Positions 7,280-46,264 of a stretch of DNA of 64,000 nucleotides are shown here, piece by piece. The notes beneath the pieces are model-generated. The model worked only from the letters and a program-made list of their open reading frames with translations, searched no databases and was not told the DNA's origin. Numbering within the stretch: the first letter of the stretch is position 1; each line of letters opens with the position of its first letter. The position numbers and the translations under genes are program-made. Origin of the DNA: Vicinamibacterales bacterium (GTDB lineage Bacteria > Acidobacteriota > Vicinamibacteria > Vicinamibacterales > UBA2999); contig JBFWNV010000002.1 of the NCBI GenBank assembly GCA_050250875.1, positions 384,334 through 448,333 on the forward strand. The letters are read 5' to 3'.

Positions 7280-7335
7280 GGCGCCGATTGTATCCGGCGC
7301 CATGCCCGGGACGGCCGCGGGGACGGCCAACGAGA

Positions 7336-30647: not shown

Positions 30648-31223
30648 ATGCGTGACATCACTGGATGGGCCGGTGGAGCCCTCGGCGTCGCGGCGCTGAT
30701 CGGCGCGTTCTACCTCGGCGGGCGCACCAGCGCGGCACCGGCGGGCTCGTCGTCGGCGTCACCGCCCGCCGCCACCGCTGTCGCGGCGATCGACGGCGTC
30801 GAGTTCGCGTGCGCGCCGGGACAGCGGGTGGTGATGCGCGACGCCACGCCGACCACGCCGCGCACGGCCGCCTGCGTCGGTGAGACGTCGAGCATGCCGG
30901 CGCCGGCGCTGACGACCGCGGCTCCGGCCTCCCTGCCGCTCCCGGCCGCCGTGCCGGCGGCACATCGCACGGTGGTCACCGAGCCGCTCGAGGTCTACCG
31001 CCCCCGCTCGGTGCCGGTGTCCTACGAGAGCGAGCGTGACGTGCGCCGGCCGGTCCGGACGAAGACGAAGAGCGCAGTGATCATCGGCAGTTCGGCGGCC
31101 ATCGGCGCCACCATCGGCGGCCTGGCCAAGGGCACCAAGGGCGCGATCGTCGGCGGCATCGTCGGCGGCGGTGCGGCCACGGTGTGGGACCAAGTGACGC
31201 GCCGGCAGGGTGAGCGCCGGTGA
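30648..31223 (+). CDS. Small membrane protein with C-terminal glycine-zipper
   Basis: N-terminal TM segment (WAGGALGVAALIGAFYLGG). C-terminal IIGSSAAIGATIGGLAKGTKGAIVGGIVGGGAATVW. AGGAGGA lies 8 nt upstream of ATG 30648; ATG 30642 is the alternative start. Confidence 0.6.
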   Translation: MRDITGWAGGALGVAALIGAFYLGGRTSAAPAGSSSASPPAATAVAAIDGVEFACAPGQRVVMRDATPTTPRTAACVGETSSMPAPALTTAAPASLPLPAAVPAAHRTVVTEPLEVYRPRSVPVSYESERDVRRPVRTKTKSAVIIGSSAAIGATIGGLAKGTKGAIVGGIVGGGAATVWDQVTRRQGERR

Positions 31224-31240
31224 ACTCTGGATGCGAGCGT

Positions 31241-31266
31241 GCCGGGCGGTTCCTCCCCGCCCGGGC
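31241..31266. terminator. Hairpin GCCGGGCGG-ttcctc-CCCGCCCGGGC between convergent genes
   Basis: Imperfect GC stem in the 45-nt gap between stops 31223 (+) and 31269 (-). No clear U-tract. Confidence 0.35.
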
Positions 31267-31268
31267 GT

Positions 31269-32426
31269 TCAGCGTGACGGCGCCCGGTACCCCTGCCGGG
31301 CGCGAATCCGCAGGTCCCGCCGCGGCGAGGTCAGGTCGATCTTCCGCCAGCGGCCGTCGGCGGCCCCGTTGGTCGGCGCGTAGCCAATCAGGTACTGGTG
31401 GGACAGTTCCGCCAGCACGTCGCCGAATCGCTCACCGAGCTGGCCGCTCCGCGCCGCCCGCAGCACCCGCCCGCCGCTGAGTGTCGCCAGCCCGTCCATG
31501 CCGTCGAGCAGCTGCTCGACCTCCTGCCCCCGCCCCAGCGCGACGAAGTAGAGCGCGACGTCGCTGGCCTCGACCGCGCTCTGCACCTGGGCGCGGGTCG
31601 CCCGGCTCGACTGGTCGTCGCCGTCGGTGAAGATCACCAGCGCGCGCCGGCCGGATCCGCGCGACAGGTCGGCGAAGCCGCGCATCATCACGTCGTAGAG
31701 GGCGGTGCCGCCGAACGGCTGGAGGTGCCCGAGCATCTCGAGGCGGCGCGCCACCGTGTCGGACGGCTGCCCGATGGGAAACATCTCGTCGTTGAAGGCG
31801 ACCAGCGAGACGGCGGCGCCCGGCGGCAGGCGGGTGACGAACTCGCCGACGGCCTGTTTGAGCGCCGGCAACGCCTCGCCCATGCTCTGGCTGACGTCGA
31901 GCGCGAGCACCAGTTCGAGCGGTGCCTCCTCGCTCGAGAAGTGCTGGATGGTCTGCGGCACGCCGTCCTCGACCAGGCGGAAGGCGTCGCGCGACAGGCC
32001 GCGGACGAAGCCGCCGTCGCGATCGGTCACGATCGCCGGCACCTGCACGACGCGCACCGCGGTGCGCTCGACGACGTCGAGCGCCGGCGTGCGGCGGGTG
32101 GCGACCAGGCGGGCGCCGTCGGCCAGGGTGGCGACGACACGGAGCTGGTGGGCCCGGACGATCGGCCCGGCGTCCCAGACACAGCGCGGCCGGCCGCCGG
32201 CCTCGACGCGGCAGACCTCGCGGCCGTCGGCGAAGAAGACGTACCCGGTGACGTCGCCGGTGCGCTCGGCGGGCTCGACGCGGGCTTCGATGGCGACGCG
32301 GTCGCTGACGTACTCCCCGTCGGCCGGTGTGAGGATGCTCAGCGAGGGTGCCTGCGCCGCCGGCGTGACCCCCGGCGTGGCGGCAAGGGCCAGACCCGAG
32401 ACGAACAGGCCGCTCCACCCGGTCAT
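31269..32426 (-). CDS. Secreted von Willebrand factor type A (VWA) domain protein, Acidobacterial TIGR03436-like
   Basis: ATG 32426 overlaps the upstream stop (ATGA). Signal peptide MTGWSGLFVSGLALAATPGVTPAAQA. MIDAS motif LALDVSQSM, then ...GGTALYD...VIFTDGDD. The C-terminal ...RARQGYRAPSR is typical of the family. Confidence 0.8.
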   Translation of the reverse strand: MTGWSGLFVSGLALAATPGVTPAAQAPSLSILTPADGEYVSDRVAIEARVEPAERTGDVTGYVFFADGREVCRVEAGGRPRCVWDAGPIVRAHQLRVVATLADGARLVATRRTPALDVVERTAVRVVQVPAIVTDRDGGFVRGLSRDAFRLVEDGVPQTIQHFSSEEAPLELVLALDVSQSMGEALPALKQAVGEFVTRLPPGAAVSLVAFNDEMFPIGQPSDTVARRLEMLGHLQPFGGTALYDVMMRGFADLSRGSGRRALVIFTDGDDQSSRATRAQVQSAVEASDVALYFVALGRGQEVEQLLDGMDGLATLSGGRVLRAARSGQLGERFGDVLAELSHQYLIGYAPTNGAADGRWRKIDLTSPRRDLRIRARQGYRAPSR

Positions 32427-35400
32427 CGCCGCACCGCATCCGCCGGCGTCAGGACGCCGATACCGGCCAGCGCCGACACGTAGTCTTCGAACCGTTCGCG
32501 GGTGAGCCGGCGCGCCTGGCGTCCCAGCCCCGCCCAGTCCTCCGACGAGGCGAGCTCGGCCGAGTCGAGCAGGTCCTGCACGGCGAACGCCAGCACGCCG
32601 GGGTACACCTCGGGCGGCAATCCCGCCTGGACGGTGAGCTCGGCGATGCGCAGCGGCAGATCGGCGGTCAGCGCTGCCAGCAGCCCCAGCGCGGGCCGTC
32701 CCGAGTACGGCTCCCACGGTTCCGAGCCCCGCCATTCCAGCCGCAACCGGCCATCGAGCGGCAGCGTCGGCGTGCCGAAGGCCGCTGGCAGCATCGCCGT
32801 CGGCTCGCCGATCCGCACCAGCTCCGCGAGGGTGAAGAGGTCGGCGATGCGGGCGGGTTCGTGGGCCGTCATCCACGCCAGCACCGCCCGCCGATCCGCG
32901 CTGAGCCGGCCGGCCGCGGCGAGGGCGTCGAGGGCGGCCGGATCGGTGCGGGCGCTCTGCACCCGCTCGCGGCCGCGCGTCAGCGCGGCGACGACGTCGC
33001 GGAGCTCCGATCCGGTGGCGTCGCGAGGACTGGCCAGCGCCGCCTGCAGCGCCAGCGCCTGCAGGTTCGCGGCGGTGAGGAGCGTCGGCCGCGGCGGCGC
33101 CGCTGAGGACAGCCGGCGCAGCGACAGCCGGGCCAGCGCGTGCTCGAGCCCGACGGCGGCACCGACCACCGCACCGGTGTCGTCGGCTTCCGCCGGGAGA
33201 CTCCACGGCGTCTCGCGCCTGGCGCTCTCGCTCACTTCGTGGACACCGAATCGGTGACGGAGCGCCAGATCGCCGGCGCGTGCCGCGGCCCCGTCGGGAT
33301 CGCCCAGGTGCGGCGTGTAGGCGACCGACAGCAGCAGGTGCATCGCCATCCACTCGACGACCTCGCCGAGCCGCTCGGCGGCCCGACCGACGCGGTCGCG
33401 ATCCCGCGGCCCGCGCACGCGCTCGAGCTCGCGGCGGGCCTGGGGCAGCACCCGCGTCACTTCCAGCGGCTCCGTGATCTCCTCGAGGGCCCGCGGCCGG
33501 CCCAGGGCCTTCTCCACCTCGGCGATGTCGCGCATCTCGTCGCGGGCCTTTTCGGGCGACGGCGTGCCGTGCGCCACCTGCCGCATCACCTGCAGCACGC
33601 GCGCCAGCATCTCGAGTGAGACTCCGCCCTGCGCCGCGCGCAGGCGCGACAGACGCTCGCCTTCCGCCGCCGTCCAGTCGACGACGTAGTCAGCCCCTTC
33701 CCAGGTGACCCGGCTGCGGGGGCCGGCGCGCGTTGCCATCGCGTCGGCGAGGGCGACGTCGAGGCCGTCGGTGACGCGCGGCAGCCGCGGCACGACGCGA
33801 TCGACGAGCCAGGCGGCGACCCCCGCGCCGAACCCGTCGGGGCCGAGCGGCACGCTCATCAGCGCCGAGAGCAACGCGGCGGCCGCCTCCTGCCCGAGCA
33901 CTCCGGCGCGCAGCAGCCGATCGATCAGCGCGACGGCGCCCTGCAACCCGCCGAGGGCCACCGCGCGACGGTTACGATCCTCGAGCCGCTGCACGGCCGA
34001 CGCCTGGTGCACGGCCTGCGTCGCCAGACCGGGCGACAACAGACCGCTCCGCTCCAGCACCAGCAGCAGCGCCGGAAACTCCGCGAGGCCGCGCGCGGCG
34101 AGCAGCGCACCGGCCAGATCGCCCGCCGCAACCGCCGGCATCGCCCGCGGCAGGACCAGTACCTGCCGGAAGCGGATTGGCCGCTGGTCGCGCGCGTCGT
34201 TGCAGACACGCTCGACGAGCCACGCCGCGTCGACCAGCCCGTCGTCGTCGAGATCGCGCAGCGCCCGCGCCGGGTCGTCCGGGATGCCGGCCTCGAACGC
34301 GCGCTCCCAGAAGCGGCGCTGCTGCGGGCCGGCGAGCCCGTTGCCGGCCGCCGCGGCCGAGGTGGGCAGGCCCCGCAGCAGCAGCCACGGATCGGCCGGA
34401 TAGCGCTTGAGCGGCGCGATCGCTGGCGTCCAGTCGGCGTCGGCCCGGGCGACCGCCTCGTAGAGGGCCCGGAACCGGTCGAGGCGGCGGCCGGCATCGC
34501 GCATCCAGGCCCCGGTGGCGAAGCGGCGCTGGGGCTCGGGCAGCGCCTGGACGAGGTCGAAGAACACCGCCAGGCGTCCGCCGTCGCGGGTGAAGAGCCG
34601 GCGCACGAACGCCGCCGGAGCGGCGACCGGTTCATCGACCAGCGCGTCCCACAGCGCGGCCTCCTGTGGATCGCCGGCCACCTGCACGCGGCCGCTGCGC
34701 ACTACCACCTGGGCGCCGTAGGCGGCAAACAGCGGCGCCGCCTCGCGGTGCAACGCGCGCACGAGATCCGGGGACGACTCGAGGAACCGACGCGTCGAGG
34801 CGTCGAGGGACATCGCGCCCTGCCAGAGCAGCAGCGCGTTCGGATCGCGGAACAGCTCGGCGAACAGCGCGCGCGCCGGGATCTCGCGCTCGAACACCAC
34901 CCGCGTCCACGTGGCCGGCGACAGCGCCAGCGGCACGTCCACCGCCGGCACCTCCAGCGTCACGCTCTCGCCGGAGTTGAGGCGGGCGGCGACCGCCTCG
35001 ACGTCGAGGCCGAGGGCCTTGAGCGCGGTGTGCAGATCGCGGCTGCGCCGGCCGTCGTCGAGTTCCACCGAGTACTGGCCGCGCCGCTCGCGCAGCCGCC
35101 CGCCCAGCGCTTCGACGGCCTCGCGGAGACGGTCGCGCGACTGGCGCGTCTTCGCCGTGCCGAGCGACAGGACGCCGCCGGGGCCAGCGAGGCGCGCTGC
35201 CTGCTCCACCCGGACCGCCAGATCGAGCTGCGCCTGCACACGGGCCAGCGTCGCCTCGTCGGTCCGCACCGACGCCGCGGCATCGTAGCGACGCTGGATC
35301 AGCAGGCGGAGCACCGACGCCCGCTCCACCGTCGCCGGAATCCCGAGCTCGGCGAAGGCCCAGGCGCCGGCCGGCACCGCCAGGGTCGACAGCTCACCCG

Positions 35401-35518
35401 GCGGCGCGGACTGCGCCGTCGCGGGCCGGACGGCCACCACGCCGACGAGGGCGAGCGCGACGAATACAGGGGCCGCGGGACGTCGGCGGACCGACGGGCG
35501 AGCTGGCGCGGGGAACAT
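32423..35518 (-). CDS. Large (1031 aa) secreted protein of unknown function
   Basis: ATG 35518. N-terminus MFPAPARPSVRRRPAAPVFVALALVGVVAVRPATAQS is signal-like. Composition is consistent and non-shadow across 3.1 kb. I recognise no domain or catalytic motif. Translationally coupled to the VWA gene. Confidence 0.7.
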   Translation of the reverse strand: MFPAPARPSVRRRPAAPVFVALALVGVVAVRPATAQSAPPGELSTLAVPAGAWAFAELGIPATVERASVLRLLIQRRYDAAASVRTDEATLARVQAQLDLAVRVEQAARLAGPGGVLSLGTAKTRQSRDRLREAVEALGGRLRERRGQYSVELDDGRRSRDLHTALKALGLDVEAVAARLNSGESVTLEVPAVDVPLALSPATWTRVVFEREIPARALFAELFRDPNALLLWQGAMSLDASTRRFLESSPDLVRALHREAAPLFAAYGAQVVVRSGRVQVAGDPQEAALWDALVDEPVAAPAAFVRRLFTRDGGRLAVFFDLVQALPEPQRRFATGAWMRDAGRRLDRFRALYEAVARADADWTPAIAPLKRYPADPWLLLRGLPTSAAAAGNGLAGPQQRRFWERAFEAGIPDDPARALRDLDDDGLVDAAWLVERVCNDARDQRPIRFRQVLVLPRAMPAVAAGDLAGALLAARGLAEFPALLLVLERSGLLSPGLATQAVHQASAVQRLEDRNRRAVALGGLQGAVALIDRLLRAGVLGQEAAAALLSALMSVPLGPDGFGAGVAAWLVDRVVPRLPRVTDGLDVALADAMATRAGPRSRVTWEGADYVVDWTAAEGERLSRLRAAQGGVSLEMLARVLQVMRQVAHGTPSPEKARDEMRDIAEVEKALGRPRALEEITEPLEVTRVLPQARRELERVRGPRDRDRVGRAAERLGEVVEWMAMHLLLSVAYTPHLGDPDGAAARAGDLALRHRFGVHEVSESARRETPWSLPAEADDTGAVVGAAVGLEHALARLSLRRLSSAAPPRPTLLTAANLQALALQAALASPRDATGSELRDVVAALTRGRERVQSARTDPAALDALAAAGRLSADRRAVLAWMTAHEPARIADLFTLAELVRIGEPTAMLPAAFGTPTLPLDGRLRLEWRGSEPWEPYSGRPALGLLAALTADLPLRIAELTVQAGLPPEVYPGVLAFAVQDLLDSAELASSEDWAGLGRQARRLTRERFEDYVSALAGIGVLTPADAVRR

Positions 35519-35576
35519 CTCCGTCCGGGTAGGTGAGCGTACACCGGACCGGAGGAGCGCTCAACGCGCCGCCGGG

Positions 35577-36578
35577 TCAGAACGCCGCCTGATAACAGAA
35601 CTCGCTGTCGGGCGGACTGAGCAGGCGCGGCTGCCCGGCGCCGGCCGAGGCCCCGACGAGCCCCTTGCATGGGATCGAGACTTCCACGGCCGGGTCGGCG
35701 TCGTACTCCTCGGTCATCGCCAGCGGCCGGTACTTGACCGGGTCGCCCGACGCCGTCTGGAAGAAATCGAAGTAGTGGTCGCCGTGCCGGAGGATGTGCG
35801 GCTGCGGATTGGTCGGCGGGTAGGCGGGCAGCGCCACCACCCACGCGGGCGTACCCGCCGCCGGGGTCACCACGAATCTGCCGGCGCCCCCCTGCAGCCG
35901 CAGGCCGAGCGGCGCGGCATGCTCGAACGCGCCAATGTCGGTGAGCCGGCGCGGACCGCCAATCGGCCCGGTCGGCAGCCAGAACGTGTAGCCGCGATCG
36001 CCGCCGGCGGCGCCCGTCGGCGGCGCCTCGCGCAGCCGGCCGTCGAACAACGTCACGACTCTCCGGTGGGCGGCGTGGAACCGGTAGTCGACGCCGGGGT
36101 TGGCCATCGCCGCGACGTCCTGCATCCGCGGCCACAGGTCGGGCGTGGCCACGACAGCCTCGCCGGCCGATCCGACGGCGAGATCCCACGGCGCCAGGCA
36201 AAGCGCCTTGAACAGCGTCTGGAGCGTCGCGGCCGCGGCGAAGTAGGGATGGATGGGACCGAGCGTCGTGGCGGCGACGTCGGAGAAGTACGCGGCGCCG
36301 GCGCCGAGATCGCTCCCGGCGTGGACGAGCAGAATGGGCTCGTGGCCCGGAATGCCGTAGCCGACCAGCGCCTGGCGCTGCTTGCGGTAGCCGAAGGCGC
36401 CGACCAGCCGCAACTCACGGTCGCTGCCCCGATCGTCGCTGGATCGGACCGGCGAGGCCGTCCCGACCTGGGCGGCACTGGCCCGGAGCTCGACTGGCGG
36501 GCCGCTGGCGGCAGCCGCGGCCACCCCGCTGGCGGCCAGGGTCGCGAACTGTCGCCTCGTCAGCATCGGCTGCGCCAT
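35577..36578 (-). CDS. Tat-exported protein of unknown function (333 aa)
   Basis: ATG 36578 with GAGGAGG about 8 nt upstream. Twin-arginine signal MAQPMLTRRQFATLAASGVAAAAASG. No recognisable domain. Ends ...FCYQAAF. Confidence 0.7.
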   Translation of the reverse strand: MAQPMLTRRQFATLAASGVAAAAASGPPVELRASAAQVGTASPVRSSDDRGSDRELRLVGAFGYRKQRQALVGYGIPGHEPILLVHAGSDLGAGAAYFSDVAATTLGPIHPYFAAAATLQTLFKALCLAPWDLAVGSAGEAVVATPDLWPRMQDVAAMANPGVDYRFHAAHRRVVTLFDGRLREAPPTGAAGGDRGYTFWLPTGPIGGPRRLTDIGAFEHAAPLGLRLQGGAGRFVVTPAAGTPAWVVALPAYPPTNPQPHILRHGDHYFDFFQTASGDPVKYRPLAMTEEYDADPAVEVSIPCKGLVGASAGAGQPRLLSPPDSEFCYQAAF

Positions 36579-36619
36579 CGATTCCGCCTCCTCGCTCGAC
36601 GGATCGACGGACCGCGCCG

Positions 36620-39600
36620 TCAGATTCCGGACCCGACGACCACGGTGCGGGCCCAGACCCTCGAGGGCAGGCCGCGGGCGATGCCGTCGAGCTGCGCGGT
36701 GCGCAGGGCCTCGTGGACGGGCCGGCCGCGGGCCAGCTGGCGGTGCACGCTCACGGAAAAGGCCGCCGCAGCCTCGTCGGGCACGTCGGTCAGGGTGGCG
36801 ATGACGCTGCCGGCTCCCGCCGCGAGCACGGCGCGCGCCAGCGACAGCGGCCCCTCGCCGCGGCGGGTCACGCCGCCGGCCGTGCCGCAGGCGGCGAGGA
36901 ACACCACGCGGGCTGCGTGGAGGTCGGCGCCCGACAGGTCGGTGGCGTACAGCCGTCCGGAATCGCCACCACTGGCGGTCAGCTGCAGGTGCGAACGCAT
37001 GGGGTGCTCTTCGTTGGCGATCCCGTGCGCGGCGAAGTGGATGACTTCCGCGCCGTCGAGCGCCTGCAGCACCGCCGCCGGCGATGCCGCCGCGGCTGTC
37101 AGCACCACGCCGTCGCGGTAGAGGCCGCGCACCGCCGCGGCTTCACGGCCGGCCGCCGGAAGCGCCGGCGTTCCGGCGCCCGCATCGACGACGCCGACGG
37201 CCACCGCCCGCGCCGGCACGCCGCGGTCCGTGCGGGGGTGCAGCGCCTGATCCACGGTCGGCGCGAAGACCACGCCGTGGTCCTGCACGAGTCGCCGGCC
37301 GGTCGCGGTGTCGACGAGTGAGGCGAACGGCACGTCGTAGTACGGCACGTCGGGCACGATCCACAGGGTGTCCAGTCCGCGCAGATCGGCCTGCACGGGC
37401 CGCACGAGGGCGTCGAACAGGGCCGCGGCGGCCGCGGCGTCGACGTCGCCGTCCAGGGTCACCTGGCGGGCCAGTGCCCGGGCCCGGCCGCTGGGCATCG
37501 GCACCCACACATGGCGAGCGCCGCGGTGGCCGACGACGAGCAGCGACAGCCGCGTGTCGAACTGGGAGATGAGCAGGAGGCCGTCGGCCGGGCCGAGGGC
37601 CCGTTCGGCCTCGGTCAGCGAGCGCCGCCCGGCACGCGACCGTCTGGCCTCGGCGAGCGTGCGGCCGCGGCTGTCCTGGAAGGCCTGGAATGCGGCGTCG
37701 AGATCGCCGCGAGTCAGCGCCGCCTCGATGCGGTCGGCGAGCAACCCCCATGAGGCGTCGAAGTACGAGATGCGATCGTCGCTGCCCAGCGCCAGGCGTT
37801 CGCGCTCGAACGCGTCGAGTCCGGCCTCGAGCGAACTGGCCGCGGTGGCGGCGTCGCCCAGCCGGCTGGCCGCGCGGCTGTGCGCGAGCCGCAGCTGCGC
37901 CAGGCGCAGCGTCTCGCCGCCCGCTTCGACGATTCGCAGGGCCTGCTCCGCCGCGGCGCGGGCGCGGCGCCAGTCGCCGTCCGGCGCTTCGGCTTCAGCC
38001 GACAGCAACTGCAGTTCGATGCGGGTCCGGAACGCCGCGTCCGTCACGCCGACCAGCGCCGCACGCGCCGCCGCCAGGGCCGCCGGAATCAGATCCGGGC
38101 GCCCGCTCGCCGCCAGCACGCGCACCTGTGTCGCCAGCGCCTCCACCTCTGCCGCGGGATGCAGCAGGCGGGCATTGGCGACGAGCGCCGCGGTCACGCT
38201 GCCGGCGGCGTGCGGCCAGCCGGCGGCGAGGCAGGCGTTGGCCATGCCGATCAGCCACAGATGTCGGGACCGCGGATCGGCCGCGCCTCCGAAACGCCCG
38301 GCGGCGACCCAGTACCCCCACGAGCGATCGACGTCGCCGACGTAGCGCGAGAACGTCCCGAGCATCGCGTGGGCCGTCATCAGCGTCGGCGCGCCGGCCC
38401 CGTCCTCGGCGGCCCGCAGGTGCGCGCGGTAATGGCGATCGACGTCGCCGAGGCGGCCGTCGCCGAACGCGAGCATGCCGAGGTGGGCCTGCGCGGCGGC
38501 GACCACGTCGGCATCGCCCGGCGGGCCATCGACGATCGCCGCCAGGTGCCGGAGGCCGGCCGCGGTACCGCCGGCACGCAGGTGCGCGCGGGCCGCGAGG
38601 AGGCGGGCCGCCTGGGCGAGCGGACTCCCGATCGCGCGCACGGCGATCACCGCGGCCTCCGCGGCGTCGAGGCTCTCCGCGTAGCGCTCCTGACGCTGCA
38701 GGGCCGACGCGGCGGCGAACGCCTCGTGGCCGAGGGCGAAGCGGCGGCACGCCGCGACCGAGCCGACACACGCCGTCCGCGCCGCCGCCGCCACGGCGGT
38801 CACCACGTCGGCGGGGCCGTTCGGATCGCCCGCAATCGCGGCCAGCGCCTCCGGCAGCACCACCGTCCCGCCGCGTGCCTCCCGCGCCCAGGCCGCCAGC
38901 ACGTCGTCCTCGACGTGGCGCCGGACGGCCCACCGCGGCGCGGCGCGGATCCAGGCGGCCGCCGCCATGGACGTGGGGCGCCTGGGCACACCGTTCTGCC
39001 ACGCCGGCAGCGCCGAGGACTGGGTCAGGGCGTCGAGCCGGCGGCGGGCGTCGCCGGCCCACGCCGAGGCGGCGTCGATCTCGAGGTAGCGCCGCCACGC
39101 CGCGGCGGCCTGGGGGGCCAGGTGCAGCGCGTCGAGCGCCAGCGCGCGGTTGTACAACGCCTCCGGGAGCTCGGGCGCCAGCGCCAGGGCCCGATCGGCC
39201 AGCTCCAAGGCCCGTGGCCAGTCTTCGGGCCGCTCCTGCCGGCCGGCCCGGGCGGCGTACGCCGCCGACAGGTCGCTGAGCAGCGACGGCGTCGCCGCGC
39301 CGGCGGCATTGGCCCGCTCGAGCGTCTCGAGCCCCTCGCCGAGGTCGCCGATCAGCACGTAGGCGACGCCGAGCGCGTGCAGGGTCTCGGGCGAGCCCTC
39401 CGCCGCCGCTCGGCGCTGCAGTTCGCCGGCCACCGCCAGCAGCGCCAGGTTCTCGCCGGCGAGTTCGCCGGATCCGCGCATGACCTGGCGCAGCGGGCCG
39501 TACTGGAAGCCGCCGGTCAACCGCGGTTCGATATAGCGGACCGCGCCCGCGGCCTCGACCAGCCGCGCCACGATGGCGTCGGGCTCGGCCGGCCCGGCGC

Positions 39601-39919
39601 GCCGCCCCTGGGCGAGCCAGACCATCACCGCGATGGCCGCCGCGGCGGCCAGCACGCCACCGACGGCCGCGGCGATGCGCGGACGGGGGGGCGCCACCGC
39701 GGCCACGCCATCCCCGGCGTTGGCCGGCGCCGCGGCGGCGGCGGCCTCGGCCGGCATGGTGTCGACCGCGTGCATCGTGTCAATCAGCCACGCCTGGAGT
39801 TCTGGGTCCGCGGCGATCTCGACATCGACCTTCGCGCGTTCCTCCGGGGGGAGTCGGCCATCGACGTAGGCGGCGAGTGTCTCGGCATCGAGACGGCGGG
39901 CCCCGGGTCGTTCAGTCAT
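36620..39919 (-). CDS. Membrane anti-sigma factor fused to TPR repeats and a C-terminal CHAT (caspase-like) protease domain
   Basis: N-terminal anti-sigma signature LAAYVDGRLPPEERAKVDVEIAADPELQAWL, without the HxxxCxxC cysteines. Single TM segment (IAAAVGGVLAAAAAIAVMVWLA, about 39611-39676). TPR-like helical repeats follow. CHAT region has His (VIHFAAHG, codon 37025-37027) and Cys (VVFLAACGTAGG, codon 36887-36889). The start is ATG 39919 or GTG 39925, and both overlap the sigma gene stop. Confidence 0.8.
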   Translation of the reverse strand: MTERPGARRLDAETLAAYVDGRLPPEERAKVDVEIAADPELQAWLIDTMHAVDTMPAEAAAAAAPANAGDGVAAVAPPRPRIAAAVGGVLAAAAAIAVMVWLAQGRRAGPAEPDAIVARLVEAAGAVRYIEPRLTGGFQYGPLRQVMRGSGELAGENLALLAVAGELQRRAAAEGSPETLHALGVAYVLIGDLGEGLETLERANAAGAATPSLLSDLSAAYAARAGRQERPEDWPRALELADRALALAPELPEALYNRALALDALHLAPQAAAAWRRYLEIDAASAWAGDARRRLDALTQSSALPAWQNGVPRRPTSMAAAAWIRAAPRWAVRRHVEDDVLAAWAREARGGTVVLPEALAAIAGDPNGPADVVTAVAAAARTACVGSVAACRRFALGHEAFAAASALQRQERYAESLDAAEAAVIAVRAIGSPLAQAARLLAARAHLRAGGTAAGLRHLAAIVDGPPGDADVVAAAQAHLGMLAFGDGRLGDVDRHYRAHLRAAEDGAGAPTLMTAHAMLGTFSRYVGDVDRSWGYWVAAGRFGGAADPRSRHLWLIGMANACLAAGWPHAAGSVTAALVANARLLHPAAEVEALATQVRVLAASGRPDLIPAALAAARAALVGVTDAAFRTRIELQLLSAEAEAPDGDWRRARAAAEQALRIVEAGGETLRLAQLRLAHSRAASRLGDAATAASSLEAGLDAFERERLALGSDDRISYFDASWGLLADRIEAALTRGDLDAAFQAFQDSRGRTLAEARRSRAGRRSLTEAERALGPADGLLLISQFDTRLSLLVVGHRGARHVWVPMPSGRARALARQVTLDGDVDAAAAAALFDALVRPVQADLRGLDTLWIVPDVPYYDVPFASLVDTATGRRLVQDHGVVFAPTVDQALHPRTDRGVPARAVAVGVVDAGAGTPALPAAGREAAAVRGLYRDGVVLTAAAASPAAVLQALDGAEVIHFAAHGIANEEHPMRSHLQLTASGGDSGRLYATDLSGADLHAARVVFLAACGTAGGVTRRGEGPLSLARAVLAAGAGSVIATLTDVPDEAAAAFSVSVHRQLARGRPVHEALRTAQLDGIARGLPSRVWARTVVVGSGI

Positions 39920-40742
39920 GGTCACCCCCGGTGCTCTGCTGGTGGGACGGACCGGTGCCCCCGATTTCTATTTCGAGTCCCTGGGCCGATCGGCCAGCCA
40001 GCCGCGTCATGACCTCGGCGACCGCCGAGGCGGCGATTCCCTGGCCCTCGAGCGCGCGCCGCAGGTCGGTCACGATGCGATCGAATCGCCGGTACAACGC
40101 CTTCTGATCGGCGCCGGTCATCGCGGCGATGCGGGCCACGGTGTGTCCCCCCCAATACCGCAGCTGCAGCTGCACCTGGTCGCCCGGGGTCAGCGCGCGC
40201 ATCGCGTCGCCCAGGGCGGCGGCCACCGCCGCGGCGGCGCGGTCCGCTTCGTGGTCGTCGACGGCGTCGCTGGCCCGGCCGGGGCCGGGCACCGTGGCGA
40301 GGTGGTGCTCGTCGACCCGGCGGCGGGCCGGCCGCCGCGGCAGCCGCCGCCAGGTGGCGTCGCACTCTTCGAGCGACGCGACGCCGCGCGCCGCCAGCGT
40401 CTGCGCTGCCTCGCCGAAGGTCAGCCGATCGCGCCCGACCATGCGTTCGAGCTCGATCGCGACCGGACCGAGACGGCGGGCCTCGGCGGTCGGCCGCCAC
40501 TTGCCCCACTCGGCGATCCGCCAGTCGAGATAGAGACGCTGGACGACCGTGATCAGGAAGGTGCGGAGCGAACTGCGCCCGGCGAACTTGCGGAGAATCG
40601 CCTGGTCGCGATCGAGCAGGCGCAGCCGTGCCCACGAACGGAATTCGTCGGCGGCGTCGGGAGCGAGCCGGTGCATCCGGCTGGCCTGGGCCAGAGCGGC
40701 TTCGATCGTCGCGGCGTGAGCGGTATAGAGATCGGGCGGCAC
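39912..40742 (-). CDS. ECF-like sigma-70 family sigma factor, atypically long (276 aa)
   Basis: GTG 40742. Region 2-like FRSWARLRLLDRDQAILRKFAGRSSLRTFLITVVQRLYLDWRIAEWGKW. Region 4-like LTPGDQVQLQLRYWGGHTVARIAAMTGADQKALYRRFDRIVTDLRRAL. About 85 aa lie between them and about 45 aa follow region 4. Confidence 0.8.
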   Translation of the reverse strand: MPPDLYTAHAATIEAALAQASRMHRLAPDAADEFRSWARLRLLDRDQAILRKFAGRSSLRTFLITVVQRLYLDWRIAEWGKWRPTAEARRLGPVAIELERMVGRDRLTFGEAAQTLAARGVASLEECDATWRRLPRRPARRRVDEHHLATVPGPGRASDAVDDHEADRAAAAVAAALGDAMRALTPGDQVQLQLRYWGGHTVARIAAMTGADQKALYRRFDRIVTDLRRALEGQGIAASAVAEVMTRLAGRSAQGLEIEIGGTGPSHQQSTGGDHD

Positions 40743-40759
40743 CGGCGTCCGGACCCGAG

Positions 40760-40789
40760 ATTATCGGGGGACGCTCTGCCCGAACTCAA
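40760..40789 (-). promoter_or_regulatory. Sigma70-type promoter candidate for the sigma operon: TTGAGT, N18, GATAAT (minus strand)
   Basis: The minus strand reads cTTGAGTtcgggcagagcgtcccccGATAATctcgggtccggacgccgGTG. The -10 ends 17 nt from the start codon. Confidence 0.35.
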
Positions 40790-40951
40790 GAAGCCTCGCG
40801 GCGCCGGCGGCGACCGGCGCCGCCGAGTTGACCTCGACCGGCCACCCCGGCACGCGGGCTCTAGGGAAGCCTGGACGCCGGGCCGATCTCCCCCCGGACA
40901 TCGGAGCCGGACGAGGTCGAGTGGGTGGACGGACCGGTCCGCGAAGTTCCG

Positions 40952-43429
40952 CTACTCCGCCCGAAGTGCCACGACCGGGTCGACCCGCGTCGCCCGTTGC
41001 GCCGGCAGATATGCCGCCGCCGCCGCGACACCGAGCATCAACAGCGCGACCGCGACGAAGCTGAGCGGGTCGGTCGGCGTGACGTCGTAGAGCAGGCTGC
41101 CGATGAGCCGGGTCACGCCGAGCGCGCCAGCCACGCCGAGGGCGACGCCGATCGACGCCAGCCGCAGCCCGTGGCCGATCATCATCCGGCGCACGTCGCC
41201 GGCCCCGGCCCCGAGGGCCATGCGGACGCCGAACTCCTGCGTCCGCTGCGACACGCTGAAGGACAGCACGCCGTAGACGCCGACCACGGCCAGCAGCAGC
41301 GCCAGCGCGCCGAAAGTGCCGAACATCTGGCCGAACAACGCATACTGCCAGAAGCCCTTGCGGCGCAGCTCGTCCATCGACGTCGCCGCGAACACGGGCA
41401 GGATCGGGTCGGACGCCCGAATCGCCGCGCGGATCGCCGGCGTGACGGCCACGGCGTTCCCGCCGGCACGCACCAGGAGGCCGGTGTTGGGTGTCTCCTG
41501 ATACGGATACGGGACGAACGCCGCTGGCGTCACCTCGCGTTCGCCGACCTCCTCGACCATCACGTCGGGCACGACGCCGATCACCGTGAACCACCCGGCG
41601 TCCGGATCGTCGAGCAGGCGGAAGCGCCGCCCGATCGGATCGATGGCGCCAAGTTCGCGGGCGCCGGCGAGCCGGCCGGCGGCCGGCGGCGGCGCGGCAG
41701 CGCCCTCGGGCGGCGTGAAGTGGCGTCGCGCCATGCTGACGTTGATTACCGCGACCCCGGAGCGGGTCCGGCTCTCGGCCTCGGTGAAAGTCCGGCCGCG
41801 GATCGCGGCGGCGCCGAGGGCCTGCAGGTAGTGGCTGGTGACGCCGGCGAAGAACAGCTGCGGCTCGCGGCCGACCTCGGCGGCGCCCCCTTCGACCTCC
41901 ACGCGGCTCACGTCCCCGCCGCCGTCGAGCGGAATCAGGTTCGAGGCGCCCGCCGCCGACACGCCCGGCAGGGCCTCGATGCGCGCGACGACGTCGTCGA
42001 TGCGCCGGGCCATCGCCCCCGGCTCCTGATAGCCGTCGCCCGGCATGAACAGCCGCACCGTGGTCAGCACCGACGGATCGAAGCCGACGTCGGCGCGCTG
42101 CAGATTGAGGAAGCTGCGGGTGAAGAGCGCGGCGCCGACCAGCAGCACGATCGACAGCGCCACCTCCATGACCACCAGGATGTGCCGGGCGCGGTTGCGC
42201 GCGCCGGCATCGCCGGTGCGGCCGCCCTCGCGCAGCGCGGCGACCAGATTGCCCCTGACGGCGTGCACGGCCGGGGTCAGCCCGAACACGACGCCGGTCA
42301 GCAGGCTCACCGCGATGGTGTAGCCCAGCGTGCGCGGATCGAGCGTGAAGTCGATGAGGTACGGCACGTCGTCGGCCGGCACGCGGGCGCGCAGGGCGCC
42401 GATGCCGACCCACGCCAGAACCAGGCCGAGCGGTGCCGACGCCGCGCCGAGCAGCACGCTCTCGGTCAGCAGCTGACGGACGATCCGGCCGCGCCCGGCG
42501 CCGATCGCCGCCCGCACCGACATCTCGCGGGCGCGGCTGGTCGCCCGGGCCAGCAGCAGGTTGGCGACGTTGGCGCAGGCGATGAGCAGCACCAGCGTGA
42601 CCGCCCCCAGCGCGGTGAGCGTGACCAGCCGGACGTCGGCCGGCACGTAGTACTCGGTGAGCGGGTCGACGCGGATCCCCCAGCCGTCGTCCTCGGCGTA
42701 CGTGCCCGCCAGCCGCGTCGCGATGGCCGACAGCTCATCGCGCGCCTGATCGGTGCTGCGCCCGTCGGCGAGCCGCGCGAACACCTCGAGCGTGCGGGTC
42801 TGCCGCGGCAGGTCGGCGACGAGCGGCTCGAGTGGCACCCAGGCGACCTGCAGGAACGGGAACTTCACTCGCGGCGGCAGCACGCCGACGACGGTGTAGG
42901 GGCGGGCGTTGATGGTGACGGCGCGGCCGACGATGGCCGGATCGGCGTTGTAGCGGCGCCGCCACAGCTCGTCGCTCAGGATGACGACGTCGGCGGCGCC
43001 GACCCGATCGTCGGCGGCGGTGAAATCGCGCCCCAGGGCCGGCACGATGCCGAGCATCGAGAACAGGCGCCAGCCGACCGCCGCGCCGAGGACGCGCTCC
43101 GGCTCGTCGCCGTCGGAGAAGGTGAGGCTGCGCCCGTCCACCCCGGCGACGGCGGCGATCGACCGGCTCCCCGCCTCGTAGTCGCGCAGGTCGGGCACCG
43201 ACAGCCCGCCGCGGCGCACCCCGCTCTGCTGCTGGGTGGACCACAGCGTGACGAGCTGTCCGGGGTCGCGGAACGGCAGCGGATTGAGCAGCGTGCCGCT
43301 CACGACGCTGAAGATCGTGGCGTTGGTGCCGATCCCCAGCGCCAGGCAGGCGATGGCCAGGACGGTGGCGAGCGGCGCCTTGCGCAGCGCGCGCAGCGCC
43401 AGCCTGATGTCCTGGCGGAGGCCGTCCAT
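40952..43429 (-). CDS. ADOP-family duplicated ABC-type permease (2x MacB-like periplasmic domain + FtsX)
   Basis: MDGLRQDIRLALRALRKAPLATVLAIACLALGIGTNATIFSVV... is the canonical ADOP N-terminus. 825 aa with two FtsX-like 4-TM modules. No adjacent ATPase gene. Confidence 0.85.
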   Translation of the reverse strand: MDGLRQDIRLALRALRKAPLATVLAIACLALGIGTNATIFSVVSGTLLNPLPFRDPGQLVTLWSTQQQSGVRRGGLSVPDLRDYEAGSRSIAAVAGVDGRSLTFSDGDEPERVLGAAVGWRLFSMLGIVPALGRDFTAADDRVGAADVVILSDELWRRRYNADPAIVGRAVTINARPYTVVGVLPPRVKFPFLQVAWVPLEPLVADLPRQTRTLEVFARLADGRSTDQARDELSAIATRLAGTYAEDDGWGIRVDPLTEYYVPADVRLVTLTALGAVTLVLLIACANVANLLLARATSRAREMSVRAAIGAGRGRIVRQLLTESVLLGAASAPLGLVLAWVGIGALRARVPADDVPYLIDFTLDPRTLGYTIAVSLLTGVVFGLTPAVHAVRGNLVAALREGGRTGDAGARNRARHILVVMEVALSIVLLVGAALFTRSFLNLQRADVGFDPSVLTTVRLFMPGDGYQEPGAMARRIDDVVARIEALPGVSAAGASNLIPLDGGGDVSRVEVEGGAAEVGREPQLFFAGVTSHYLQALGAAAIRGRTFTEAESRTRSGVAVINVSMARRHFTPPEGAAAPPPAAGRLAGARELGAIDPIGRRFRLLDDPDAGWFTVIGVVPDVMVEEVGEREVTPAAFVPYPYQETPNTGLLVRAGGNAVAVTPAIRAAIRASDPILPVFAATSMDELRRKGFWQYALFGQMFGTFGALALLLAVVGVYGVLSFSVSQRTQEFGVRMALGAGAGDVRRMMIGHGLRLASIGVALGVAGALGVTRLIGSLLYDVTPTDPLSFVAVALLMLGVAAAAAYLPAQRATRVDPVVALRAE

Positions 43430-43653
43430 GGACGGAGGATACGCTCGCCCGCGGTCACGGGTTCGGGTTCACCCTCACATCCGAGTTGGCGGTGACGATC
43501 GCCCGGCCTGGGAATTCCAGGGCAGTCTCCGCGAGACAAACAAAGGCATACTGATGAGCTGGCCGCCCGTCCCGGCCCGGGATGCTTGCGGCATACTTAC
43601 CAGGCACGGGCGGCCGGTGGCGCGTCCGCTTGGGCGGCCTTTTCGAGGTGGCA

Positions 43654-46188
43654 ATGAGACAGCTCCTGGTGGCGGCGGCGGGCGTCGCAGTGCTCTCCTA
43701 CGGCGTCGCGGCGAACCGCGGTCAGGCGCCAACGGCCGCCCCGGCAGCGCTGCGTCCTGCCGCTCAGACCCTGGCCCAGGCCCCCGCCCGTCCGACGCCG
43801 GCGGGCAGCCCGGCAGCACGGCCGGCGATGGTCGCCGCCGAACAGACCCGCCTCGTCACCACCTACTGCGGCACCTGCCACAGCGAGCGTGGCAAGGCCG
43901 GCGGACTGTCATTGGCCAGCTTCGACGCCATGAAGGCGCACGAGCAGCCGGCGGTCATCGAGAAGATGATCCGCAAGCTGCGCGCCGGGATGATGCCGCC
44001 GCCGGGCGCGAAGCGACCCGCGGCCGCCGAGATCGACCAGCTCGCCGGCGCCCTCGAGGCGCGCATGGACGAGTTCGCGGCCAGCAACCCCAACCCGGGC
44101 TGGCGGCCGTTCCAGCGTTTGACGCGCTCCGAGTACTCGCAGGCCGTCAAGGACCTGCTCGATCTCGAGGTCGACATCACCTCCTACCTGCCGGCCGACA
44201 CCCAGGCGCACGGCTTCGACAACATTGCCGAGGCGCAGAGCTTCAGCCCGGCGCTGCTCGACGGCTATCTCCGCGCCGCCTCGCAGGTGAGCCGGCTGGC
44301 GCTGGGCGACAAGCAGGCGTCACCGACCTCGGCGACCTACCGCGTGCTGCAGGTCGAGTCGCAGATGCAGTACGTCGAGGGCACGCCGCTCGGCTCGCGC
44401 GGCGGGCTGGCCGTCGTCCACACCTTCCCGGCCGACGGCGACTACAAGTTCACGGCGCTGCTGCAGCGGACGATCAGCGGCGAGCTGTTCGGCAACACCG
44501 GCATCTTCATGGCCGGCAGCGACGAGCTGCTCGAGATCTCGATCGACGGCGAGCGCGCCGCGGTGCTCGAGGTCAAGGCGAGCATGAGCGACGCCTTCGA
44601 GCGCGGCTTCGAGATCGACAGCCCGGTGATCCACGTCAAGGCCGGCCCGCAGCGCATCGCCGCGGCGTTCGTGCCGCGCTCGGTCGGCCCGGTGGACGAC
44701 CTGATGATGCCGATCGACCACACGCTGGTCGACATGCGCATCGGCACCGGCTTCGGCATCACCTCGCTGCCGCACATCCAGGACCTGGTGATCTCGGGGC
44801 CGATGAAGGTCACCGGCATCTCCGACACGCCGAGCCGGCGCAAGGTCTTCGCCTGCCGGCCGACGGCCGCCGAGGAAGAGCGCGGCTGCGCCACCGACAC
44901 GGTGCGCCGCCTCGCCACCCAGGCGTTCCGCGGCCCGGTCAACGCCGCCGACCTGGCCGACCTGATGAAGTTCTACGACCAGGGCCGCCGGGACGGCGAC
45001 TTCGAGAACGGCATCCGTCTGGCGCTGCAGGGCATCCTGGCCAACCCGCGCTTCCTGTTCCGCGTCGAGGAGCAGCCCGACGTGCCCGCCGGCAGCATCT
45101 ACCGCATCGGCGACCTGGAACTGGCGTCGCGACTGTCGTTCCTCCTGTGGGGCACGGTGCCCGACGCCGACCTGATCAAGGCGGCGACGTCGGGCGGCCT
45201 GAAGACGACCGCCGGGCTCGAGCGCCAGGTGCGGCGCATGCTGGCCGACCCGAAGGCCGAGGCGCTGGCGACCCGCTTCGGCGCGCAGTGGCTGCGCCTG
45301 CAGGACGTCGAGAAGGTGCGGCCCGACGGCATCCTCTTCCCGCAGTGGGACCAGTCGCTCACCGAGGCGATGCGCAAGGAGACCGAACTGTTCTTCGCCA
45401 GCCTGGTGCGCGAAGACCGCAGCCTGCTCGACCTGATCAACGCCGACTACACCTACGTGAACGAGCGCCTCGCCCGCCACTACGGCTTCCCCAACGTGAC
45501 CGGGCCGGAGTTCCGGCGCGTGGCGCTGCCGCCGACCAGGCGCGGCGTGCTCACGCAGGGCAGCATCCTGATGATGACGTCGGTCGCCGACCGCACCTCG
45601 CCGGTGCAGCGCGGCAAATGGGTGATGCAGGTGATGCTCGGATCGCCGCCGCCGCCGCCGCCGCCGAACGTGCCGGCGCTCGAAGAGACCGGCGGCTCGA
45701 GAGACGGCCGCGTGCTCTCGGTGCGCGAGCGCATGGAGGAGCACCGCAAGAACCCGGCCTGCACGTCGTGCCACCGCGTCATCGACCCGCTCGGCCTGGC
45801 GCTCGAGCACTTCGACGTCACCGGCCAGTACCGCATCAAGGACAACGGCGTGCCGATCGACGCCGTCGGCACGCTCTACGACGGCAGCGAGATGAACGGC
45901 GCCGACGGCCTGCGCCAGGCGCTGCTCAAGTACAAGGACGCGATGCTCGCCAGCTTCACCGAAAGCCTGATGACCTACGCCCTGGGGCGCCACGTCGAGG
46001 CCTACGACATGCCGACGGTGCGCGGGATCCAGCGCGACGCCGCCCGCCACGACCACAAGCTGTCCGCCTACGTGCTCGGCGTGGTGAAGAGCCAGCCGTT
46101 CCGCATGATGACCCGCCCGGCCCAGACCGACACGACGGCGCCGGTCGCCGCCGCCCCGATCAACCCGGTCAACCAGATCAACCGATAG
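43654..46188 (+). CDS. DUF1592/DUF1595/DUF1587/DUF1588/DUF1585-type protein with CxxCH haem-c motifs (Planctomycete-cytochrome-like)
   Basis: ATG 43654 after GAGGTGG. Signal peptide MRQLLVAAAGVAVLSYGVAA. YCGTCHSERGKAGGLSL and PACTSCHRVIDPLGLALEHFD are CxxCH motifs typical of the family. Confidence 0.8.
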   Translation: MRQLLVAAAGVAVLSYGVAANRGQAPTAAPAALRPAAQTLAQAPARPTPAGSPAARPAMVAAEQTRLVTTYCGTCHSERGKAGGLSLASFDAMKAHEQPAVIEKMIRKLRAGMMPPPGAKRPAAAEIDQLAGALEARMDEFAASNPNPGWRPFQRLTRSEYSQAVKDLLDLEVDITSYLPADTQAHGFDNIAEAQSFSPALLDGYLRAASQVSRLALGDKQASPTSATYRVLQVESQMQYVEGTPLGSRGGLAVVHTFPADGDYKFTALLQRTISGELFGNTGIFMAGSDELLEISIDGERAAVLEVKASMSDAFERGFEIDSPVIHVKAGPQRIAAAFVPRSVGPVDDLMMPIDHTLVDMRIGTGFGITSLPHIQDLVISGPMKVTGISDTPSRRKVFACRPTAAEEERGCATDTVRRLATQAFRGPVNAADLADLMKFYDQGRRDGDFENGIRLALQGILANPRFLFRVEEQPDVPAGSIYRIGDLELASRLSFLLWGTVPDADLIKAATSGGLKTTAGLERQVRRMLADPKAEALATRFGAQWLRLQDVEKVRPDGILFPQWDQSLTEAMRKETELFFASLVREDRSLLDLINADYTYVNERLARHYGFPNVTGPEFRRVALPPTRRGVLTQGSILMMTSVADRTSPVQRGKWVMQVMLGSPPPPPPPNVPALEETGGSRDGRVLSVRERMEEHRKNPACTSCHRVIDPLGLALEHFDVTGQYRIKDNGVPIDAVGTLYDGSEMNGADGLRQALLKYKDAMLASFTESLMTYALGRHVEAYDMPTVRGIQRDAARHDHKLSAYVLGVVKSQPFRMMTRPAQTDTTAPVAAAPINPVNQINR

Positions 46189-46250
46189 ATCTCCAGATCA
46201 ACAGATTCCGTACCGATCAACCGATCACGAGATCAACCGATCACGAGATA
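46158..46250. repeat. GATC-dense tract (8 sites in about 93 bp) including a perfect 16-nt tandem duplication GATCAACCGATCACGA x2 (46215-46246)
   Basis: Read directly from the sequence. It spans the last codons of the DUF1592 gene and the whole spacer before the DUF1552 gene. Confidence 0.8.
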
Positions 46251-46264
46251 ACAGGACGCCCGCC

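Follow-up and report, generated by a model that had tools for sequence, protein, structure and literature searches.

A candidate DdvS/DdvA-type proteolytic switch beside an exported 1031-aa/VWA protein pair in a Vicinamibacterales bacterium

Gene organisation of the locus

Five tightly linked genes occupy positions 31269-40742 of a 64-kb stretch of DNA (hereafter the window) from a Vicinamibacterales bacterium of the UBA2999 lineage (GCA_050250875.1, contig JBFWNV010000002.1). They encode, in order, a sigma factor, a membrane-anchored anti-sigma factor fused to TPR repeats and a CHAT protease domain, an exported protein of 333 amino acids (aa), an exported protein of 1031 aa, and an exported VWA protein. 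We hold it to be moderately probable, judging from sequence comparison, that the first three genes and their promoter (Unit 1, 35577-40790) constitute a regulated-proteolysis switch of the type represented by DdvS/DdvA of Myxococcus xanthus, and that the last two (Unit 2, 31269-35564) form an independent exported pair.

All five open reading frames (ORFs), together with the features mapped within them and at their borders, lie on the minus strand, at the positions given in an earlier reading of the sequence (the original prediction), whose account of the junctions also proved accurate. The sigma gene (39912-40742; 276 aa, GTG start) overlaps the anti-sigma gene (36620-39925) by 14 nucleotides (nt) when the latter is counted from its GTG (1101 aa), or by 8 nt when it is counted from the ATG at 39919 (1099 aa), which is the start in a 98% homologue (P0035). 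A gap of 41 nt then separates the anti-sigma gene from the 333-aa gene (35577-36578), and one of 58 nt separates the latter from the 1031-aa gene (32423-35518), which shares an ATGA overlap at 32423-32426 with the VWA gene (31269-32426; 385 aa). Codon-position G+C follows the coding pattern GC1>GC2<<GC3 in all five genes, in a genome of 72% G+C. The interval 31000-40000 that holds the five genes has a G+C content of 74-77%, compared with 69-73% for most other parts of the window.

Scans against Pfam and NCBIfam upheld the domain annotation (CHAT, 4.8e-51; TIGR03436, 1.3e-45; PRK13920, 7e-7), and domain scans found no NTPase domain in the five proteins or their neighbours, as had been stated. 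The products downstream of the sigma factor are predicted to act outside the cytoplasm, in agreement with the original prediction; a transmembrane (TM) segment occurs in the anti-sigma protein, an RRxF motif in the 333-aa protein, and AxAQ-type and AQA-type signals in orthologues of the 1031-aa and VWA proteins, respectively. Export signals were judged by simple heuristics and by conservation in orthologues. The 1031-aa and 333-aa proteins, in which no domain had been recognised, likewise had no family match in Pfam, NCBIfam, PADLOC or PHROGs, and no match of their modelled structures by Foldseek at the thresholds given below.

The anti-sigma, TPR and CHAT protein

The CHAT caspase-like protease domain (PF12770) covers residues 832-1098 (36632-37432) and has an intact dyad, His967 (37025-37027) and Cys1013 (36887-36889). 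Pfam and NCBIfam matches to the TPR repeats of the protein are weak. At the N-terminus, about residues 12-55 (39761-39892) form a predicted cytoplasmic anti-sigma domain, which matched zf-HC2 weakly in addition to PRK13920. A profile of the N-terminal region (A9) matched Mycobacterium tuberculosis RslA in the PDB (3hug_B, 3.5e-6) as well as DdvA itself, and these profile matches point to a class I (ZAS-type) anti-sigma domain. The HxxxCxxC zinc ligands are missing from the window protein, which has EIAADPELQAW at those positions; this loss characterises the clade to which the window protein belongs, and HLASCxxC (HLASCPQC and similar) is kept in sister clades. The single TM helix is assigned to about residues 82-107 (39605-39682), the sole strong Kyte-Doolittle segment (19-residue mean 2.47), which aligns with the TM region of DdvA.

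Just beyond the membrane lies the most conserved part of the whole family, a juxtamembrane motif of the form LVxAVGxxR-x-I-E-x-R-L-T-G-G-F-x-Y-G-P-L-R-x-V-x-R-G, given as LVxAxGxxRYIEPRLTGGFQYGPLRQVMRG at residues 122-152 (39470-39562). R130, R135, L136 and G139 are invariant, and E133, T137, G138, F140 and R150 are nearly so. The motif aligns with R109...E112-x-R114-V-T...Q128-V129-M130-M131-G132 of DdvA, and the aligned stretch runs into the loop formed by DdvA residues V129-P140, seen by cryo-EM to face the dyad of the other protomer (PMC11506125). Only in a related clade that has lost the catalytic dyad (see below) are E133, R146 and R150 replaced, giving ...VLGRLTGGFPHAPLGVPSAGG. This co-variation of juxtamembrane residues with dyad loss fits the motif as a candidate substrate or docking segment for CHAT cleavage.

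Similarity to DdvA

The original prediction had named no characterised example of such a system; one exists in M. xanthus, where DdvS and DdvA are a characterised sigma/anti-sigma pair with published structures (PDB 8ROT, 8RW5, 8RLZ; PMC6061681, PMC11506125). DdvA comprises a cytoplasmic anti-sigma domain that binds zinc, a single TM helix, a flexible linker, a scaffold and a dimeric periplasmic TPR-CHAT "arrowhead" (PMC11506125). The hallmarks of the type include this dimeric arrowhead and a CHAT domain without the three-helix motif. It was proposed in 2018 and again in 2024 that a signal induces the CHAT domain to cut the partner's linker as the site-1 step, with RseP acting next (PMC6061681; PMC11506125). 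Because this model matches the mechanism suggested earlier for the window genes, that mechanism is essentially the published DdvA hypothesis. Protease-controlled sigma release stands as the best current model, and the accompanying claim that it would replace the classical site-1/site-2 cascade falls, as CHAT would provide only the site-1 cut and RseP still acts at site 2 in the DdvA model.

The relationship to DdvA was evident from family profiles. With the full-length profile, the best natural protein in the PDB was 8rot_B (1.4e-26), a 991-aa "CHAT domain-containing protein" that was outscored only by designed TPR proteins. Entry 8ROT is M. xanthus DdvA, as its residue numbering (H862, C907, Q128, V129) agrees with the published description (PMC11506125) and 8rlz_A is named "Antisigma factor DdvA". 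A CHAT-only profile matched DdvA at 4.9e-17, whereas separase scored about 1e-4 and craspase 5e-4 to 1e-3; in the alignment with DdvA, H967 is paired with H862 and C1013 with C907. The N-terminal profile, which spans the anti-sigma domain, the TM helix and the juxtamembrane segment, covered DdvA residues 8-135 (8rot_B, 1.2e-5) and also matched the separate DdvA N-terminal domain (8rlz_A, 2.7e-3). DdvA was found with family profiles only; a single-sequence phmmer search of the PDB with the anti-sigma protein retrieved just a designed TPR protein. In the reverse direction, a DdvA fragment used as query had no match in the genome contigs, and the protein search gave short fragments at ≤63% identity only, DdvA itself not being among them.

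The architecture of the two systems is alike. In both, the sigma gene is translationally coupled to a single-pass anti-sigma gene product of about 1000-1100 aa, in which the parts follow in the order anti-sigma domain, TM helix, linker, TPR scaffold, TPR superhelix and CHAT domain with a His-Cys dyad. The juxtamembrane signature R-x-[IL]-E-x-R-[LV]-T...QVM is common to both, and both operons continue with further genes downstream. However, the present genes belong to Acidobacteriota (Vicinamibacterales) and DdvA to Myxococcota, similarity between single sequences is undetectable by phmmer, and the CHCC/HxxxCxxC zinc site of DdvA is absent from the window clade. The sigma factor here is about 275 aa long with a conserved insert, and no DdvS chain was matched in the PDB. 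Downstream of ddvA are an unknown gene and a C25 peptidase gene, and the third gene here encodes the Tat-type 333-aa protein. Finally, DdvA controls a defence island of CBASS (cyclic oligonucleotide-based antiphage signalling system) and CRISPR (clustered regularly interspaced short palindromic repeats) genes, and no such neighbourhood is found in the window.

The sigma factor and the cassette promoter

The 276-aa protein appears to be an atypically long sigma-70-family factor resembling those of extracytoplasmic function (ECF). The earlier call of a sigma factor is upheld by a match to TIGR02937 (3.4e-9) and by region 4, which was matched in all 22 members of the family; it is qualified by a score of 36.6 bits, under the 42.9 cut-off. 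Region 2 was matched in 4/22 members, Sigma70_ECF in 6/22 and region 3 in none of the 22. The protein has a divergent sigma-2 domain, then a conserved insert of about 60-70 aa (WGKWRPSAEARRLGPVAIELER...), then a clear sigma-4 domain. A sigma-3-like reading of the insert, which had come from inspection of the sequence, was dropped, as Pfam gave no region 3 match. PDB matches of the family profile were confined to the sigma-4 domains of ECF sigma factors, and a single-sequence phmmer search of the PDB gave just a weak sigma-4 match. In the paper that sets out the ECF classification, the main text contains no mention of caspase or TPR.

A promoter scan of 30.5-41.5 kb found a single sigma-70-like site, TTGAGT-N18-GATAAT at 40789-40760, as expected from the original prediction that such a site lies only in front of the sigma gene. 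The full element, CTTGAGT-N18-GATAATC (40759-40790), is one instance of a motif, CTTG(A/T)GT-N17/18-(G/C)ATAATC; about 24 of the 27 related loci described below bear a single copy of it, immediately ahead of the sigma gene. Compared with the autoregulated ECF type (AAC ... CGT), the core TTG(A/T)GT-N17/18-(G/C)ATAAT is sigma-70-like. No second copy of the motif was found in the 64-kb window, nor any copy in cassette-free loci. An ECF-like motif, GGAAC...CGTC, just past the stop codon of the upstream MacB gene was dropped, given its wrong spacing and lack of conservation. The cassette promoter stops 17 nt before the sigma start, so that the predicted leader is very short. Both this element (region 40743-40790) and the promoter-like element ahead of the 1031-aa gene (region 35519-35564; see below) end just 14-17 nt ahead of a start codon, and transcripts from them would be nearly leaderless, with no space for a Shine-Dalgarno sequence.

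Distribution, subtypes and split variants of the cassette

A profile search of genome contigs with the anti-sigma protein found 27 loci, all from Acidobacteriota and mostly from Vicinamibacterales. The cassette family extends over at least 27 Acidobacteriota genomes at species level, with about 50 protein clusters, and a sigma gene for about 275 aa lies directly upstream of the anti-sigma gene in 26/27 loci. Three subtypes are recognised: (i) the window clade, in which the zinc ligands are absent (EIAADPExYEW) and the dyad is intact, (ii) a second clade (clade B), with HxxxCxxC and an intact dyad, and (iii) an L020-type clade, in which the zinc motif is kept and both His and Cys are lost. The dyad is strictly kept in the first two clades. 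The third is the largest related clade, with about 11 genomes, and is by its sequences a pseudo-protease version of the switch. Its loci are L020, L023-L025, L027, L028, L030, L031, L034, L035, L040 and L041 (anti-sigma gene at about locus positions 6000-9270), where His has become Q, R, E, P, G or A and Cys has become D, E, H or others. The zinc anti-sigma motif, the sigma gene and the promoter are retained in this clade, and the 333-aa gene in 10/12 loci.

In four loci, L038 (2515-6680), L036 (5986-10096), L032 (5872-10028) and L017 (4814-8663), the anti-sigma protein is split. These encode a short anti-sigma protein of about 300-385 aa (anti-sigma domain, TM helix and scaffold) and a separate TPR-CHAT protein of about 1000-1100 aa; in L036 and L038 the latter has its own hydrophobic N-terminal anchor and a repeat of the scaffold domain. 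Paralogy of the two scaffolds, tested directly in L038, amounted to 33% identity over 209 aa (E = 2e-14). Two of the four split-variant assemblies seem to be short-read assemblies, and a simple frameshift was ruled out by the overlapping profile coverage of the two proteins. Judged from these gene structures, the split arrangement is what a protease acting in trans on its partner chain would allow.

Three other loci (L044, L045 and L047) have the same sigma family with a short anti-sigma protein only (about 320-375 aa) and no CHAT gene directly after it; in L044, a CHAT ORF lies about 4 kb off on the opposite strand. In L021/L022 (16672-23354), a MoxR-DUF58-VWA-VWA-TPR-BatD (Bat-like) operon lies 3 kb downstream of a cassette with a zinc motif and an active dyad, whose third gene is directly followed by a DUF6345 gene. 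The locus gives a second and independent example of the switch near exported VWA proteins, an arrangement that may be coincidence.

The 333-aa protein

The third gene of the cassette encodes a protein with a twin-arginine-type N-terminus (TRRQF), and an RRxF motif is found at the N-terminus of most members of its family. The family is rare: among 1.8 billion cluster representatives, the search found 8 relatives at E≤1e-6. In 12 loci (ten of the 27, together with L019 and L020), the gene directly after the anti-sigma gene encodes a homologue, and the surroundings of the cassettes that bear it vary between loci. H79, H110, C127, D214, H265, C304 and C328 are invariant. The AlphaFold2 model is mostly beta, with a predicted local distance difference test (pLDDT) score of 76 and a predicted template modelling (pTM) score of 0.77, and a Foldseek search with it found no match below E = 0.1 in the PDB or BFVD. 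By hhalign, the family had no significant match to the third genes of L021, L038 and L017, and the third genes of these clades appear either unrelated to it or diverged past recognition. As the gene is kept in the dyad-less clade, the 333-aa protein cannot be merely a CHAT substrate, and we infer that it is more likely a co-sensor or regulatory partner.

Residues 244-295 of the 333-aa protein are weakly matched at 13 places in a metagenomic protein of 4717 aa (P0093; E = 5e-6). The Pfam scan of P0093 gave odd PIN7/TOPRIM matches only, and nothing informative.

The 1031-aa and VWA pair

The 1031-aa exported protein is almost entirely alpha-helical. It has 34 homologues, of which none is named and none has a Pfam match, and a profile search found 14 genome loci, which restrict the family to Vicinamibacteria once evident mislabels are set aside. 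Two metagenome-assembled genomes, L001 and L030, are labelled Bifidobacteriaceae and Acidimicrobiia despite their Vicinamibacteria-type loci, probably through binning or labelling errors. The AlphaFold2 model is all-alpha (pLDDT 88.9, pTM 0.86), and Foldseek found nothing below E = 1 in the PDB. The VWA protein has an Ig-like N-terminal domain and a TIGR03436 VWA domain (156.4 bits, cut-off 81.25). Its metal ion-dependent adhesion site (MIDAS) is D177-V-S-Q-S, and the DxSxS motif, which had been described as intact, is conserved in 8/8 proteins (the window protein and seven orthologues). Orthologues of the 1031-aa protein keep signal peptides ending AxAQ, and those of the VWA protein have AQA-type signals. 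A VWA homologue follows the 1031-aa gene in 11/14 genome loci, and the exported VWA protein is the sole firm association of the 1031-aa protein.

A promoter-like element, TTGAGC-N17-TACGCT (35536-35564), lies in the 58-nt gap before the 1031-aa gene, and similar elements (TTGnnn-N17/18-TAnnCT) precede the orthologues by an equal distance in L001 and L004, which lack the cassette. From this conservation, the element is probably the pair's own promoter. A GC-rich hairpin (31241-31266) lies 3' of the VWA stop codon, where the original prediction had placed one; its stability is not above that of shuffled sequence (z = -1.3), it has no U-tract, and a terminator scan made no call there.

The closest relatives, L001 (78% identity) and L004/L015 (70%), carry the 1031-aa/VWA pair without the cassette. 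The gene order in these loci is as in the window, namely PSD/DUF1552, MacB, the pair, a C19orf12-like gene, M23, M19 and a LytTR two-component system, with MacB directly preceding the 1031-aa gene. The spacer between MacB and the sigma gene in the window is homologous to the spacer between MacB and the 1031-aa gene in L001; thus, the three cassette genes sit inside that intergenic region. Among the 14 loci of the 1031-aa gene, a sigma gene and a CHAT gene are found upstream in L003 only (= L017, L037). In L002 the 1031-aa gene occurs without a cassette or a VWA gene, L017 has the cassette and the 1031-aa gene and lacks VWA, and most cassettes occur without the pair. The conserved units therefore appear to be a three-gene cassette (sigma, anti-sigma and 333-aa) and a two-gene pair (1031-aa and VWA), whose separate conservation across loci indicates that the five genes are two adjacent units. 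Their juxtaposition is lineage-specific, occurring in the window, in the near-identical twin contigs P0001/P0035 and, in rearranged form, in L003/L017.

More distant members of the Vicinamibacteria have, after the pair, a gene for a conserved protein of about 950 aa with C-terminal TPR repeats (L006:14315-17197, L009:13810-16659, L007, L011, L012 and L014), which suggests a three-gene exported module (1031-aa, VWA and the TPR protein) in these organisms.

Proposed mechanism and alternatives

In the proposed mechanism, the cytoplasmic N-terminal domain of the 1101-aa protein would hold the 276-aa sigma factor at the membrane, while the extracytoplasmic TPR-CHAT part, which is probably dimeric, would sense a signal, probably a protein, perhaps with the help of the Tat-exported 333-aa protein. 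The His967/Cys1013 dyad would then cut the juxtamembrane segment of the partner chain (about residues 130-152), and the cut would expose a stub to a site-2 (RseP-type) protease, by which the sigma factor would be freed. The 1031-aa/VWA pair, immediately downstream of the switch, could also receive read-through transcription, besides transcription from its own promoter-like element.

Several observations weigh against such a switch. The precedent is itself a proposal as regards self-cleavage by CHAT, given that the H862A and C907A mutants of DdvA had no phenotype in resting cells, and the authors did not identify the signal (PMC11506125). Since the conserved cassette promoter resembles the housekeeping sigma-70 type, autoregulation is unproven, and no further copy of its motif marks a regulon inside the window. 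The sigma factor scores under the ECF cut-off, similarity to DdvS was not detected in the PDB, and the zinc ligands used by DdvA are missing from the window protein. The co-variation of dyad and juxtamembrane motif rests on one clade, and so on one evolutionary event. Furthermore, the L020-type clade keeps the sigma gene, the anti-sigma architecture and the 333-aa gene after loss of both catalytic residues, from which it follows that catalysis is not essential to the function of the family. This last point, the absence of a phenotype in the DdvA dyad mutants and the description of the DdvA active site as incomplete and resting (PMC11506125) would agree with a TPR-CHAT part that serves only for ligand binding and steric block, the anti-sigma factor being inactivated by a separate site-1 protease (DegS/Prc type) or by a conformational signal, and CHAT catalysis being dispensable or used for another purpose. 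We regard this explanation as possible, at a clearly lower probability than the self-cleaving switch; the dyad is strictly kept in the window clade and clade B, the juxtamembrane residues change along with its loss, and the split variants keep an active-looking CHAT protein beside the short anti-sigma protein.

The original prediction had instead treated all five genes as one unprecedented envelope signalling or self-defence system, in which CHAT, the two unknown proteins and VWA would act together. The shared strand and close packing of the genes, the one strong promoter-like site ahead of them and the hairpin behind them, the plausible export of every product downstream of the sigma factor, and the related cassette upstream of the 1031-aa gene in L003/L017 (sigma 72% identical) are all consistent with this. 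However, no cassette accompanies the pair in L001, in L004/L015 or in any of the more distant loci, the 1031-aa gene stands alone in L002, most cassettes lack the pair and L017 lacks VWA; the five genes are thus not conserved as one unit. The 1031-aa gene also keeps its own promoter-like element, and the DdvA precedent exists. As for self-defence, PADLOC gave no match beyond a weak generic CHAT one and no defence genes lie nearby, which leaves that part of the claim unsupported. Taken together, the one-system explanation is unlikely. It is more improbable still that the main substrate of CHAT is the 333-aa protein or the 1031-aa/VWA proteins, with the anti-sigma domain only coupling expression of the protease to the status of the envelope. 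Of the possible partners, the 333-aa gene shows the most consistent linkage, its invariant His, Asp and Cys residues suggest a folded, perhaps metal-binding, Tat substrate, and separase/securin and craspase/Csx30 are examples of TPR-CHAT enzymes with dedicated protein partners (PMC11506125), but the gene is kept in the dyad-less clade and the sequence gives no pointer to a cleavage site.

Returning to the DdvA-type switch, a more far-reaching version of it is offered as a tentative possibility. The cassettes may represent a natural mutational series of the DdvA mechanism, in which the motif E133-x-R135-LTGGF...R146-QVM-R150-G would be cut in trans by the partner's CHAT domain, with the split genes carrying out the same reaction as two polypeptides and the 333-aa protein acting as a co-sensor or a securin-like protease regulator. 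Such a switch would be a general envelope sensor, and not one of phage defence, that here drives an exported, adhesin-like 1031-aa/VWA pair.

Relation to other known systems and implications

Type III-E craspase combines Cas7-11 with Csx29, a TPR-CHAT protein that cuts Csx30, and there too cleavage of a partner is linked to a putative anti-sigma/sigma pair (PMC11506125); the family profiles weakly match the CHAT domain of Csx29 (5e-4 to 5e-5). However, craspase acts in the cytoplasm under RNA guidance and is associated with CRISPR, its protease and its target being two separate soluble proteins, and no cas genes are found here. In the RseA/DegS/RseP cascade and in self-cleaving anti-sigma factors, as in the proposed switch, a site-1 cut outside the membrane is followed by a site-2 intramembrane cut. 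The site-1 protease would here be part of the anti-sigma factor itself (or, in the split variants, a paralogous partner) and would be a clan CD cysteine protease instead of a serine protease. The VWA protein resembles the acidobacterial TIGR03436 proteins, with a score above the cut-off and an intact MIDAS, but differs in its fixed pairing with an all-alpha 1031-aa protein; no described system with that pairing was found in the literature. As regards the cytoplasmic NTPase-dependent CHAT/VWA conflict systems, neither the NTPase nor the cytoplasmic location is seen here, and the TM and signal features point to export.

DdvA-like proteins were reported by the DdvA authors in Myxococcota and one Comamonas species only (PMC11506125), and the DdvA signal and self-cleavage are unproven. 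The soil Acidobacteriota provide a second, larger and more diverse set, in which fused and split, zinc-bound and zinc-less, active and dyad-less versions can be compared. New with respect to DdvA are the phylum, the zinc-less anti-sigma domain, the atypically long sigma factor, a conserved third gene without a fold match in PDB or BFVD, the absence of a link to defence genes, the natural split and catalytically dead variants, and the conserved juxtamembrane motif. The acidobacterial set shows that the DdvA type of sensor is not tied to CBASS/CRISPR defence. Moreover, the candidate cleavage motif offers specific residues to mutate, and the candidate partner protein a specific interaction. Both the 333-aa protein and the 1031-aa protein, whose confident model has no counterpart in the PDB, represent well-defined dark families suited to structural and functional work.

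Neighbouring genes

The surroundings of the five genes include MacB, PSD/DUF1552, M23 and M19 peptidases and a LytTR two-component system. No defence genes are among them. The window was also checked for tRNA genes and flanking repeats; no tRNA genes were found, the repeats that flank the cassette were GC-rich chance repeats only, and no signature of a mobile element was found. Directly upstream of the sigma cassette lies the gene for the MacB/FtsX-type ABC permease (40952-43429, minus strand; 825 aa). Beyond it, at 43582-47674, are a PSD/PSCyt gene of 868 aa (DUF1592/1588/1587/1595/1585, cytochrome-like) and then a DUF1552 (HXXSHH) gene with a Tat-type signal, a Planctomycete-style pair that is syntenic in L015 and L017.

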